Numbered from the stretch's first letter, positions 1,113-52,348 are shown. The stretch is 64,000 nt of DNA from an uncultured bacterium (GCA_963825135.1 CAWGRW010000009.1:2112001-2176000), one strand, 5' to 3'. A program made the numbers and translations. Notes: generated from the sequence alone by a model not told the origin.

Positions 1113-2336
1113 ATGAACTTTTTGCGTGCCGTCATTGTGGTTCTTTTTGCCGTTAATTTGTTCTTTATTCCGCGCTCGCACGCGGGATTCAGCTTCGTGC
1201 CGAACGATTTGATGACTACCCCGTTCGGCCCTGCATATGCCGATATATTACTCGAACCTACGAATTTTCTGCCGTGCGAAGGGGGACCGTATGCCCTCTG
1301 TTATTACTCGGGCCCCGGACCAGAGACATGCGAGCTTACCGGGGACGGTACGTTCGCAAATTGCAAGTGCTTCGAAATCGCGTATGGGAAATATTTCGTC
1401 GATATAAACGCAATACTCGATAAGGACATATATCTCGATACTGTGGATGTATGCGGCGCCGACGGAAGCGGTTGTCAGACGACGAACTCGGCTCCTGTCT
1501 GCGAATCTATAAACAGCGGGAGTTTTATTCCCGGGGCTGACGTCATATCCGTGTTCAGCTTCGATTGCATCCCTGAGGAGGGTATAGGAGATACGAACTG
1601 TCCGCAATCCCTTTATGCCGGGTGCATGACGGCTCCCTGTCTCAGGACCGGGGAGGAGGGGATAGTGCAATGCTCGTGTCCGACCTACGACGGGCCCTAT
1701 CAGGTGGGGCTCGATAATCAGGCCTGCGTGCTGGAGGACGACCTCGTGTGGTCAGCCGCATACAACCCGAATATCACCGGCACAGCGCCGGTACCGCCTC
1801 CGGGAGGCTGCATACCCGACGCGCCGGAATCGGTCGGAGGTTGTCCGCTTATCAGCGAGGACATTCCTCCTCCCCCGCCTAACGTCGACTGCGGTGAGGT
1901 GTGCGAGGAGTATGACAGCTGTGTTAGTTCCAATGACCTCCAATCCGGGTATACATGCGACGCTACTTTGTGTACATCGCGGTGTAACGACAGGGGGCTC
2001 GTGGGGGAAGCGTGCTCCGGACTTCAGGGCTGTGCAATTTCGGAGATAGTCAAGCTCGAATCGGAGGTCGGGTGCAGCTGCTGCGCGAGCCAGATTTGCG
2101 GCTGTGACGCTGACAGCAAAACCGACAAAGCGGTGTTCGGACTCAATAAGCGACAGAGGGAGAAGGGTATAACACCCCAGTGCGATATAAACGGCACGCT
2201 TTGCGGGGAGAGTAAGCATAACGGGGGCTCGGGCTGCGCTCTCGCCGCCGAGGGCGGGGACGGAAGCTTTCCGCTACTTTTCATGTTGCCTGCACTTGTG
2301 GTTGCGGTAAGATTATGGAGAAAGTCCCGCTATTGA
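1113..2336 (+). CDS. Secreted cysteine-rich protein with MYXO-CTERM-like C-terminal sorting tail
   Basis: Signal peptide MNFLRAVIVVLFAV...SHA; 32 Cys in the body; C-terminus GGSGC + hydrophobic helix + RLWRKSRY. Confidence 0.75.
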   Translation: MNFLRAVIVVLFAVNLFFIPRSHAGFSFVPNDLMTTPFGPAYADILLEPTNFLPCEGGPYALCYYSGPGPETCELTGDGTFANCKCFEIAYGKYFVDINAILDKDIYLDTVDVCGADGSGCQTTNSAPVCESINSGSFIPGADVISVFSFDCIPEEGIGDTNCPQSLYAGCMTAPCLRTGEEGIVQCSCPTYDGPYQVGLDNQACVLEDDLVWSAAYNPNITGTAPVPPPGGCIPDAPESVGGCPLISEDIPPPPPNVDCGEVCEEYDSCVSSNDLQSGYTCDATLCTSRCNDRGLVGEACSGLQGCAISEIVKLESEVGCSCCASQICGCDADSKTDKAVFGLNKRQREKGITPQCDINGTLCGESKHNGGSGCALAAEGGDGSFPLLFMLPALVVAVRLWRKSRY

Positions 2337-47602: not shown

Positions 47603-48139
47603 TTAAGCAATCACTTTTCTTTTCCTAAAGACAACCACGCCAATAATCCCTAAAGCTGCCGCCAAAGCTATAAATCCCCATTGGGAAAGTACCGGGATGT
47701 TATCGGGTGACGGCCTGTTAAGAAAAGTGCAGACAACGCCCGAGTCCGTACCGCTTACGAGACATCCCGCCTGAAACCCGTTTTCTAACTTGGTAAACGT
47801 CATATTGGGAGATGCGGTGCACTGGATATCCGCGAGCTCCCATCCTTCCTGCGCTGCTTCCGTTATCGTAATATTGTCTCCCTTGGATATAAATACATCC
47901 GTGGGTATCGTATTCGAGGTAACGGAGAGCGGAGATTCAATTCCGTTTAAGACCTGGTTAAATTCAAATTCCACGTTCTTTGCGGTTGTCACTTCTTTCA
48001 CAATTCTAATCAGACAGTCACTCTGAGAATAGCTCCTTTTGGTTGATAGGACCAGAAAACTCGAAACAATAATTACTAACAATAAAACCTTGAAAATACC
48101 GTTCCCCACTCTTATCGCCAGCTTGCATGGTCTTTTCAT
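47603..48139 (-). CDS. IPTL-CTERM sorting-domain surface protein with small beta-sandwich domain
   Basis: C-terminal NIPVLSQWGFIALAAALGIIGVVVFRKRK; ITEAAQEGWELADIQC...CTFLN; SD GAGGAGG. Confidence 0.88.
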   Translation of the reverse strand: MKRPCKLAIRVGNGIFKVLLLVIIVSSFLVLSTKRSYSQSDCLIRIVKEVTTAKNVEFEFNQVLNGIESPLSVTSNTIPTDVFISKGDNITITEAAQEGWELADIQCTASPNMTFTKLENGFQAGCLVSGTDSGVVCTFLNRPSPDNIPVLSQWGFIALAAALGIIGVVVFRKRKVIA

Positions 48140-48408
48140 GTCGATCCTCCTCAAAGGAATAACCCAATATTCATTATACGATTTCTCATGAGCCGTTACA
48201 ATCGTTTGCCTAATACCCCGCGGATGACCGGGAAAAGGGTGCAATCGGCATTGAATATGTGATACTGCCCGGGAAACAAGAATTGGGCTTAATCCGTTTT
48301 ATTCGAACGTTCCCTCCTTGAAATCCTGATAACCTATAGCAACAATTTAACAATCTTCACCTAGTTTTGTATAATCCCGGCAACGATACGTGAATTAAAG
48401 GAGGCAAA

Positions 48409-48762: not shown

Positions 48763-49383
48763 TTAGCCGAAGAAAGGTTGAATCTCCGGCTGAAGAACCT
48801 TACGGATAAAAAAGCCGGAATTCCGGGAAAGCGTGCTCCCGAGCAGAACCCCGTTAGCCCAGTAAAACCCGGTATCTCCTGCGGGGAGTAAATCATATGT
48901 ATAGCCACCACTGTATAGTACTTTTTCTATCGATGTCAGCTTCGCCCCATCTATAATATCGCCCGGAATTAAATCGCTTATTATTCTCTCATCTGCGGTG
49001 GGATGACTGCCTGAAACGTACAGCTTTTTTCCGTCATTTAAAATGAGATGAAATACTACATGACTATTGGGCACCGAAACTTTCGATACTAACTCTATCG
49101 GCTGTATTACCTTGTTTCCGTCCATGTCCAGAGTATATACGGGCATCCCCGGTCTCAATTCAATCATTGGAATATTCCCTTGTGGTGTGGCGATTAACGT
49201 GTCAAATGATAGGCAACCACCCATCCCGTCGTTGCTCTGCGCGTTCGCAGTCGTGAGGTTGAGCTTCTGGTTAAGCATCATGACCGATATGACCGTCGGG
49301 ATGATGAAAGCGCCTTTCGTTAACTTCTCAAGGAACTCACGCCTCTCGGGATTAACGTTGTCCAAATATTTTTTGTCCTTCAT
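48763..49383 (-). CDS. Tat-like leader + Hint (hedgehog/intein-like) domain protein
   Basis: ATG at 49383 with SD GGAGG; ERREFLEK; GG|CLSFDTLIATPQG (block A), SGSHP (block B) and TYDL...FYWANGVLLGS (block F/G, without HN). Confidence 0.88.
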   Translation of the reverse strand: MKDKKYLDNVNPERREFLEKLTKGAFIIPTVISVMMLNQKLNLTTANAQSNDGMGGCLSFDTLIATPQGNIPMIELRPGMPVYTLDMDGNKVIQPIELVSKVSVPNSHVVFHLILNDGKKLYVSGSHPTADERIISDLIPGDIIDGAKLTSIEKVLYSGGYTYDLLPAGDTGFYWANGVLLGSTLSRNSGFFIRKVLQPEIQPFFG

Positions 49384-49721
49384 GGAAATACCCTCCGTTG
49401 TATTCTGGTTAGATACGAGAATGTTTATTTCACAGTATATCACGGCCGGTATTTCCCGTAAAGCGGTAGGCGGTCTATGAAGCCTTACTCGGAACATGGA
49501 GACCCGATTCCCGTCCGAGGCTCTGCTTCGACTTGAACTGACGGGTAGATGCCCGGCAGAACGGCCGGTGACGAACCTTACCGACCGGGTTTTCGGGCCC
49601 GGCCCGGCATACGCCTTTTTCCATACCGGGCTCTCTCCCTTAATACCTTGGTATCGGCGATAATATATACCTTTGTCCAATTGTCGCCCGGACGGCCGGA
49701 GGTTAATCTCAATTCCTGTAC

Positions 49722-49805
49722 AAAAAAAATCCCCCGAGAGTATGGTCTCTCGGAGGACTTGACGCCGATACTTTTGGTCTGCACCGGCATTGAGGTATGG
49801 CTCAA
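49722..49805 (-). ncRNA. Candidate sRNA with three hairpins and an intrinsic terminator
   Basis: Three stems with loops CCAUAC, AGACCAAAA and ACCAUA; the last stem is followed by U8; the G-U pairs form only on the minus strand. Confidence 0.6.
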
Positions 49806-49810
49806 AGCTA

Positions 49811-49839
49811 AAATTAGTTACATATAGGAGTCGTGTCAA
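49811..49839 (-). promoter_or_regulatory. Sigma70-like promoter of the candidate sRNA
   Basis: Minus strand TTGACA (49839-49834), 17 bp, TAATTT (49816-49811). Confidence 0.6.
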
Positions 49840-49915
49840 TACCTGTTATCGACTCCGAATCGAGCGGCCAGGGCGTCCGGTCTTCCCCGCATCTCGGACA
49901 GGGAAGGGGAGAGAT

Positions 49916-50353
49916 ATGGGGTTATTCCCAAAAGGCAGGAAGGGGACCGGTCGCCCGGGGTTTTTCCTGATTTCAGTCCTGACAATCTATACGCTCGACT
50001 GCGCGTCGTCGGCCCGCCCGGAGCTTGAGGATGCAATACTATCCCTCCCCGGGAGCGAGCTTGAGGTGAACGTCAAGTATCCCGACAAGTACGACCCCTC
50101 GACGGGGCGGGAAGGGTTCTCCTGTAAATTTTCTGAGAAGGGCTGCGCCGGTACGTTCAACACGGAGGGCTCGCGTATAGACGTACCTCCGTCACTCGAC
50201 GCCCTCGGTCACGAGATGGAACACTGGATCAACTTCATGCTCTACGGCGAGACGCACGACGAGGACCCGAACGACCTTTCCAATATCTGCAATATCCCTT
50301 CCTACTGCCACCTGTATTCCGAATCGAGGAACCTTTTGTCCTGCCGGCAGTGA
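49916..50353 (+). CDS. Small exported protein with HExxH motif (possible mini-zincin)
   Basis: Hydrophobic N-terminus ending in Cys; ALGHEMEHW; several Cys residues. Confidence 0.6.
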   Translation: MGLFPKGRKGTGRPGFFLISVLTIYTLDCASSARPELEDAILSLPGSELEVNVKYPDKYDPSTGREGFSCKFSEKGCAGTFNTEGSRIDVPPSLDALGHEMEHWINFMLYGETHDEDPNDLSNICNIPSYCHLYSESRNLLSCRQ

Positions 50354-52241: not shown

Positions 52242-52261
52242 TAGCTATAGATGGACCTAAG

Positions 52262-52348
52262 ACGAAAGGGCAAAGCATCCGAAAGGGTGTTGCGCAAAGC
52301 TTGAGGCCTAAAAGCCTGAAAAGGCTCAAGGCGGCTCGGTTGCCGAAG
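52262..52348 (+). promoter_or_regulatory. c-di-GMP-I (GEMM) riboswitch
   Basis: AGGGCAAA-GCATCC-GAAA-GGGTGT-TGCGCAAAGC...GGCCTAA...GGCGGC..GGTTGCCGAA matches the GEMM-I consensus. Confidence 0.9.

Follow-up and report, generated by a model that had tools for sequence, protein, structure and literature searches.

A very probable small-RNA gene of uncultivated Dadabacteria, back-to-back with a small lipoprotein gene

The stretch of DNA that was analysed, called the window, comprises 64,000 nucleotides from the genome of an uncultured bacterium. On its minus strand there is very probably a real and so far undescribed small-RNA gene of uncultivated Dadabacteria, placed back-to-back with one small lipoprotein gene (Table 1). 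In the proposed scheme, a σ70-type promoter, TTGACA-17-TAATTT, would drive a transcript of about 82-87 nt with three hairpins, the last of them a strong intrinsic terminator. The RNA family would be limited to a few Candidatus Dadabacteria lineages. It would be defined by its 3' hairpin, UCCUCCGAGAG ... CUCUCGGGGGA with the U-run, and by a fixed site divergent from the HExxH lipoprotein gene, and hairpins 1 and 2 on the 5' side would be the genus-specific part. What might such an RNA do? The reading that we prefer, with somewhat less than even confidence, is a free-standing sRNA gene whose RNA acts in trans, as an Hfq-independent riboregulator linked to the lipoprotein or envelope genes. The RNA would pair by its exposed parts, namely loops 2 and 3 with their CCA and the linker GCGUCAAG, which is invariant, and its function would belong with the lipoprotein gene or with the surrounding envelope/exopolysaccharide genes. 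This mechanism was chosen because it is the commonest one for such genes; we infer transcription of the RNA, its start site, its pairing with mRNAs and the identity of these mRNAs, whereas its anatomy, strand, conservation, covariation and synteny and the lack of a known family are shown.

Table 1. Features of the small-RNA locus (positions counted from the first letter of the window)
Feature	Position	Strand	Basis and remarks
-35 hexamer TTGACA (P1, candidate sRNA promoter)	49834..49839	-	read directly; invariant in 9/9 genus-g1 sequences
-10 hexamer TAATTT, 17-nt spacer from -35	49811..49816	-	read directly
Predicted small RNA, ~82-87 nt	49722..49808	-	5' end predicted (49803-49808); 3' end within U-run
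Hairpin 1, UUGAG-CCAUAC-CUCAA, loop CCAUAC	49790..49805	-	read and folded
Hairpin 2, GCCGGUGC-AGACCAAAA-GUAUCGGC, loop AGACCAAAA	49764..49788	-	read and folded
Hairpin 3, terminator stem, UCCUCCGAGAG-ACCAUA-CUCUCGGGGGA, loop ACCAUA	49730..49757	-	read, folded, pattern scan
U8 tail of intrinsic terminator	49722..49729	-	read and pattern scan
Non-coding block, ~115 nt, TTGAGAYTAACC ... ACAATYGGACRANGGTATAAAT ... AAGGTAT ... GAAAAAGNCTTA	49605..49721		conserved in g1, g4 and G053
Small Cys-rich HExxH lipoprotein gene	49916..50353	+	ORF and translation; constant neighbour of the RNA
Lipoprotein 5' leader, possible anti-SD/SD hairpin UUCCCC ... GGGGAA	49869..49915	+	block CAGGGCGTCCGGTCTTCCCCGC... 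conserved across g1

Every element that the sequence-only reading had described on the minus strand is present between 49839 and 49722: the promoter TTGACA-17-TAATTT, the three hairpins and the U8 run. Compared with the consensus, the promoter has a -35 hexamer correct at 6/6 positions, a spacer of 17 nt and a -10 hexamer with 3/6 positions of TATAAT. It is absent from the list of the pattern scan because TAATTT agrees with TATAAT at those three positions only. The genus, here g1, is represented by nine sequences, which are the window, seven same-genus homologues and one metagenome variant, L084; the latter two make up the eight relatives referred to below. Over the nine, the -10 reads TAATTT, TACTTT or TATTTT, with T1, A2 and T6 retained. 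With a start 7-8 nt past the -10, the RNA would measure about 82 nt, and hairpin 1 would be short of one or two pairs. The pattern scan does report the intrinsic terminator, with a 14-pair stem, 7 G-C pairs and then U8, and this terminator is kept in all g1 sequences. The U-run is T7-T8 in 9/9 of them, T5 in G053, a genome of another family, and degenerate in 3/4 genomes of a second genus, g4.

The minus-strand RNA folds into exactly three hairpins at -38.7 kcal/mol (z -5.10, 0/200 shuffles as good), and its minimum-energy fold is identical to the centroid fold. The plus-strand fold is poorer, at -31.7 kcal/mol (z -2.46, 4/200 shuffles as good). In an alignment of 8 sequences, 96.6% of the 208 stem cells are paired, compared with 39-51% when the partner columns are slid, and compensatory changes are found at 3 pairs, a number reached by 4/500 shuffles. 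Hairpin 1 has such changes at two pairs (columns 6-21 and 11-16). The stem of hairpin 2 is near-invariant with G-U to A-U changes, and its loop is variable except for CCA. For hairpin 3, compared over two genera (12 sequences), 3 further compensatory pairs were found, with 30 G-U versus 2 A-C cells. The covariation sets are small, with 8 sequences in the genus alignment and 12 for the two genera; within them the stems covary in homologues, a check that had been proposed together with the candidate. It had also been claimed that the G-U pairs work on this strand only, and the alignment agrees. The imperfect stem positions of the 8 sequences on the minus strand are 25 G-U cells over 6 pairs and 0 A-C cells; read on the plus strand, the same cells would fail to pair, so the RNA strand is fixed as minus. 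The most conserved parts are the stems and the terminator and the most variable is the largest loop, a pattern that is unusual for a base-pairing RNA. Could the stretch be coding? A 1-nt deletion in loop 2 of the genome G006 shifts the frame of the sole ATG, and the variation sits in the loops with no third-position (silent-site) change in the stems, so the stretch is not coding. A 26-aa small ORF within the RNA was also rejected, its frame being not conserved in relatives.

Is the RNA a member of any known family? Searched at the gathering score, Rfam gave only a c-di-GMP-I riboswitch and a tRNA for the whole window, both elsewhere. A permissive scan of 49300-50000 (E <= 10) gave only His_leader (E = 1) and NsiR1 (E = 3), both aligned with the terminator only. 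The candidate, first put forward as an unannotated sRNA, is thus without any matching Rfam family, and no regulatory RNA is described for Candidatus Dadabacteria in those parts of the literature that a full-text search reached. With blastn, homologues were detected in 7/9 other same-genus genomes at 77-88% identity and in 0/31 further relatives; a covariance model, R1, matched the same 7/9 among 33 genomes of the family. The promoter, the hairpins and the U-run are present in all 7 homologues. In a metagenome scan, among the 120 loci listed 118 were chance matches of a 17-mer too short to be specific and 2 were true homologues, one being the variant L084. Among four genomes, the identity is 88-93% for the RNA, 75-84% for the lipoprotein coding sequence and 61-70% for the DNA behind the terminator. 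Similarly, a DNA contig of another sample (X1) has 20 substitutions over 49375-49810 and none inside 49723-49810 (P ~0.01). The genome from which the window comes has two identical copies of the RNA, the second on a short contig, C17 (G000, locus L001; 2.3 kb read). C17 carries the whole locus, with the lipoprotein gene, the RNA and a Hint-like gene, and only scattered differences, so that it is probably a strain duplicate of the assembly, in which a second strain was collapsed.

The first description of this RNA had stressed that its three loops share CCA(U/A)A. This is true for the window genome, in which the motif is found in 3/3 loops (CCAUAC, AGACCAAAA and ACCAUA). The chance of a shared 5-mer with one free column is 0.0015 (200,000 random loop triples of 6/9/6 nt), and the sharing is not a chance pattern in this genome. 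However, it is not conserved: in the 8 relatives the motif occurs in loop 1 of 0/8, loop 2 of 2/8 and loop 3 of 0/8. Their loop 1 is UUAUAA, UAAUAA, UUAUAG or CUAUAG and never contains CCA, and their loop 3 is ACCACC in 8/8, which makes the CCAUAC pair a lineage peculiarity. Loop 2 has CCA in 9/9 sequences and CCA(U/A)A in 3/9, with the variants AGACCAAAA versus UGAUCCAAU, so what persists in loops 2 and 3 is bare CCA. Loops 1 (49795-49800) and 3 (49740-49745) both read CCAUAC in this lineage only, and the likeness was made by five substitutions. The CCAUAC motif is complementary to UAUGG at the start codon of the lipoprotein gene.

From the shared motif it had been proposed that the RNA is a protein sponge or an anti-start-codon RNA acting through its three loops. 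We consider this very unlikely, as the motif is missing from loops 1 and 3 in 8/8 relatives and from loop 2 in 6/8. The sharing in the window, with loops 1 and 3 both reading CCAUAC, does speak for the proposal, and DNA contigs of three other samples have the same RNA sequence including the CCAUAC loops. For an anti-start-codon role there is also the complementarity of CCAUA to UAUGG, with the lipoprotein gene beginning UAUGGGG, but the pairing with its start region is no better than that of shuffled sequence. For a sponge, a CsrA-like partner gene would be expected, and none was found. In the window genome, which is 94% complete, CsrA (PF02599) and Hfq (PF17209) have 0 matches each, where 3/14 and 5/14 control genomes match, respectively, and no ProQ gene was found, which takes the usual chaperones and a Csr-type partner out of consideration. 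The repeated loop motif is no sign of a new protein sponge. Another suggestion of the same reading was an attenuator or leader of the Hint-like gene downstream, for which we see hardly any chance. This ORF, a weak Hint_2 match, points in the same direction, and its start at 49383 is 339 nt past the U-run. Yet the downstream gene varies among genomes, being a methyltransferase in G009, a convergent 2OG-Fe oxygenase in G003, G006 and G007 and a convergent glycosyltransferase in G008, and the Hint gene has, at 49462-49434, a promoter-like site of its own, TTTACG-17-TATACT. With four different downstream genes and this separate promoter, the RNA is not a Hint leader. Also, no alternative antiterminator pairing was seen by eye in the sequence, and a leader peptide is absent.

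How far does the RNA extend beyond the genus? In g4, a homologous hairpin 3 with 3 compensatory pairs lies upstream of the lipoprotein homologues, with the same non-coding block behind it. The g4 locus lacks the g1 promoter and hairpins 1 and 2. Since the U-run is degenerate in most of these genomes and no clear promoter was found at the g4 locus, a small RNA may not end at the hairpin there. R2, a model built from hairpin 3 and the downstream block, matches 13/101 genomes of the order, which are the window genome, 7/9 of g1, 4/7 of g4 and G053. The unit of G053 combines a promoter-like TTGACT-19-TATACT with a single 5' hairpin, exactly the terminator stem of the window and U5. The lipoprotein gene is present in 11/101 genomes of the order and 11/120 of the phylum. 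In all genomes with both the RNA unit and the lipoprotein gene (10/10) the two are adjacent and divergent, with the unit within 100-250 bp of the lipoprotein start. G016 has the lipoprotein gene without the RNA unit, and in G002, G006 and G008 the RNA is on short contigs or next to a truncated lipoprotein gene. The constant adjacency and the patchy presence indicate that the RNA and the lipoprotein gene are co-inherited as a patchy accessory module.

The lipoprotein is 145 aa long in the window and about 200 aa in relatives, and an alignment of 7 homologues shows the HExxH motif and six additional Cys without variation. No family of Pfam or NCBIfam matched it; its predicted model has a pLDDT of 82, and a fold search gave weak zinc-peptidase matches only, with E of at least 0.29. 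The window protein is short of about 50 residues present in all relatives, the gap being at 49992-50003. DNA contigs of two other samples have 150 extra bases at this place, so close strains differ in whether they have this in-frame deletion. The deletion removes the canonical lipobox context. In the leader of the gene, the anti-SD/SD pairing was read from the sequence, and an analogous pair, UCCUCCU/AGGAGGA, is found in the leader of G053 (L178 ~1700-1771, plus strand). As far as such a reading goes, it suggests translational control of the lipoprotein gene.

On the other side of the RNA, the non-coding block behind the terminator has homologues at L163-L166, L178 and L180 1501-1604. No consensus RNA structure was found for it in the g1/g4 comparison, and the window genome has no further copies. 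Within it are a direct repeat of some 24 nt and, on the minus strand, a promoter-like GCGACA-16-TATTAT at 49687-49660; readings as σ54, ECF or FliA-type promoters were rejected by eye for misfits of spacing or key bases. In G001 the block is duplicated, with a partial second copy behind an inserted methyltransferase gene, as if this were a recombination junction of variable polysaccharide genes. A 49-aa ORF at 49475-49624 on the minus strand, behind a strong GGGAGAG site, was considered as well. Its first residues, MEKGV, recur in G002 and G008, the remainder lacks conservation, a start codon is missing from several relatives, and from this comparison the ORF is probably not a gene.

Is there any sign of the transcript or of its targets? 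A sequencing-run search gave 14 runs, one of them RNA, and four runs were compared with the locus. A contig of the RNA library covers 49826-50003, which is the lipoprotein side and not the small RNA; such contigs cannot show small-RNA ends, and RNA libraries of this kind usually lose RNAs this short. When the RNA was paired with the region around the lipoprotein start, the most favourable windows of 16 nt reached -16.7 to -19.8 kcal/mol, values matched by 20-145 of 200 shuffles in 8 genomes, G006 with no adjacent lipoprotein gene being left out. Local alignment of the RNA in antisense to the lipoprotein leader gave scores of 11-17, not above the same-sense scores. Complements of the linker, the 5' end, loop 2 and loop 3 were searched genome-wide with chance-level matches only, one of which is on the wrong strand of an mdh-like gene. 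Outside the window, at C9:1289592 (plus strand, G000), a gene start GGAGUAUGGUUUC stands behind TATAAT and a GGAGG site. It is complementary to loop 3 and the 3' arm over 12 nt with one G-U, the sole match at a start codon and at chance level, and the match depends on the lineage-specific loop 3.

Besides the trans-acting riboregulator, other functions of the locus are to be weighed. Might the inverted repeats act as DNA, as operators or an insulating terminator of the lipoprotein control region, with the RNA as a functionless by-product? We regard this as unlikely, though several observations are in accordance with it. Hairpin 1 is a perfect 16-bp palindrome, TTGAGTTATAACTCAA, in most relatives and in 4/8 of the aligned genomes, at or next to the predicted start site, where an operator reading would also fit. 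The stem sequences are better conserved than the loops, the stem of hairpin 3 is identical across families in which the lipoprotein is only ~50% identical, and the distance of 100-250 bp to the lipoprotein start is kept invariably. DNA symmetry, however, does not predict the excess of G-U over A-C cells on the minus strand (25 versus 0), and the U-run after the last hairpin in 9/9 g1 sequences and G053 and the perfect -35 conserved at the right distance also argue against it. Nor is TTGAG-N6-CTCAA a repeated operator: of its 10 further sites in this genome some fall at coding positions, and the three sites inspected are apparently coding or unrelated. Another explanation takes the RNA as a mimic or decoy in which a portion of the lipoprotein mRNA leader is copied; the RNA would compete with the leader for a factor, or swap strands with the SD-sequestering hairpin, and in this way tune lipoprotein translation. 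This explanation appears fairly improbable. The RNA linker and 5' arm match the anti-SD arm of the leader in the same sense at 12/15 positions in g1, and in G053 they match at 16/18 columns of an alignment that includes one gap. Between g1 and G053 the shared sequence has changed in parallel, the anti-SD/SD pairing is possible in the leaders of both lineages, and the RNA and lipoprotein are co-inherited in 10/10 genomes. But the similarity is weak within any one genome: in g1, 62-115/500 shuffles are as good if it is the top alignment at all, which it is not in G002, G003, G008 and L084; for G053 the number is 10/500. The resemblance was spotted after many comparisons, the g4 leader is by eye without the motif, and there is no candidate binding protein, CsrA, Hfq and ProQ being not found.

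A cis-antisense role has, in our view, a small chance. Here the lipoprotein mRNA would start from a plus-strand TTGTNN-17-TARTCT at ~49690-49712, and its long leader would be fully complementary to the RNA. The pattern TTG ... 17 nt ... TAnnnT on the plus strand is kept in 9/9 g1 sequences, including L084 despite its differing surrounding letters, and between the RNA gene and the leader of the lipoprotein gene the plus strand offers no promoter that is clearer. The pattern scans, however, list no plus-strand promoter at this place, and in g4 the TTG of the -35 reads TAG. In G053 a TATAAA near the lipoprotein gene, seen by eye, stands back-to-back with the RNA promoter and would give a short leader. 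The contig of the RNA library extends 90 nt upstream of the lipoprotein start codon, but it ends at 49826, before the RNA gene. A bolder scenario, to which we likewise give little credit, would make the RNA and the lipoprotein gene a self-contained and patchily inherited module of a gene plus its riboregulator. The RNA would be an inverted copy of the anti-SD arm of the leader, a mimic titrating whatever opens or closes the SD hairpin, and loops 1 and 3 would have converged here on CCAUAC as an anti-start-codon for the same gene.

Taken as a riboregulator, the RNA can be compared with known systems. It resembles generic orphan trans-acting sRNAs in its putative σ70-like promoter, its predicted size of ~85 nt, its stem-loops, the GC-rich terminator with a U-run, the conservation within related genera and the lack of an ORF. 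It differs from them in that the window genome has no detected Hfq or ProQ gene, in that the terminator hairpin and not a single-stranded seed is best conserved, and in its fixed divergent partner across families. Some sRNA genes are transcribed away from a neighbour to which they are linked in function, such as micF-ompC and the type I pairs istR-tisB, ohsC-shoB and agrB-dinQ. Like these, the RNA is back-to-back with one gene and co-inherited with it, but no significant complementarity to the lipoprotein leader or start region was found. A type I toxin-antitoxin RNA was rejected, because the neighbour is a 145-200-aa lipoprotein, not a small hydrophobic toxin, and the start-region duplex is no better than shuffles. 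With the Csr/Rsm sponges (CsrB, RsmY/Z) and the cuckoo RNAs it shares, in the window genome only, a short motif in several loops. No loop has the GGA of the former or the CCUCCUCCC of the latter, neither matches in Rfam, no CsrA gene was found, and the loop motif here is not conserved in homologues. ColE1 RNAI is a three-stem-loop cis-antisense RNA, and RNAI/RNAII are a copy-control pair of a plasmid. The size and the three-hairpin architecture are the same, as is possibly a facing promoter on the other strand; but the RNA here is chromosomal, and the facing promoter is a weak consensus reading, unsupported in g4 and G053.

The RNA would be a new family of a familiar kind, for which Rfam has no entry. 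Should it turn out to be no more than a base-pairing RNA, an annotation and a single new RNA family would be what is gained. The RNA and an accessory lipoprotein gene, kept together across two families, offer a concrete pair that can be tested, in a phylum that has no cultures and for which Hfq, CsrA and ProQ were not found in the window genome. The surroundings in the window are exopolysaccharide/envelope genes, with Wzy_C, Poly_export, Wzz/GNVR and an IPTL-CTERM protein. At 47603-48244 on the minus strand, downstream of the Hint-like gene, a protein combines an IPTL-CTERM sorting signal with a SpaA_4 domain of the prealbumin-like type. On the plus strand, the c-di-GMP-I riboswitch at 52259-52347 (72 bits) is followed by a gene for an unknown protein, Poly_export, Wzz/GNVR and a TPR protein, and this region looks like an exopolysaccharide locus under c-di-GMP control.
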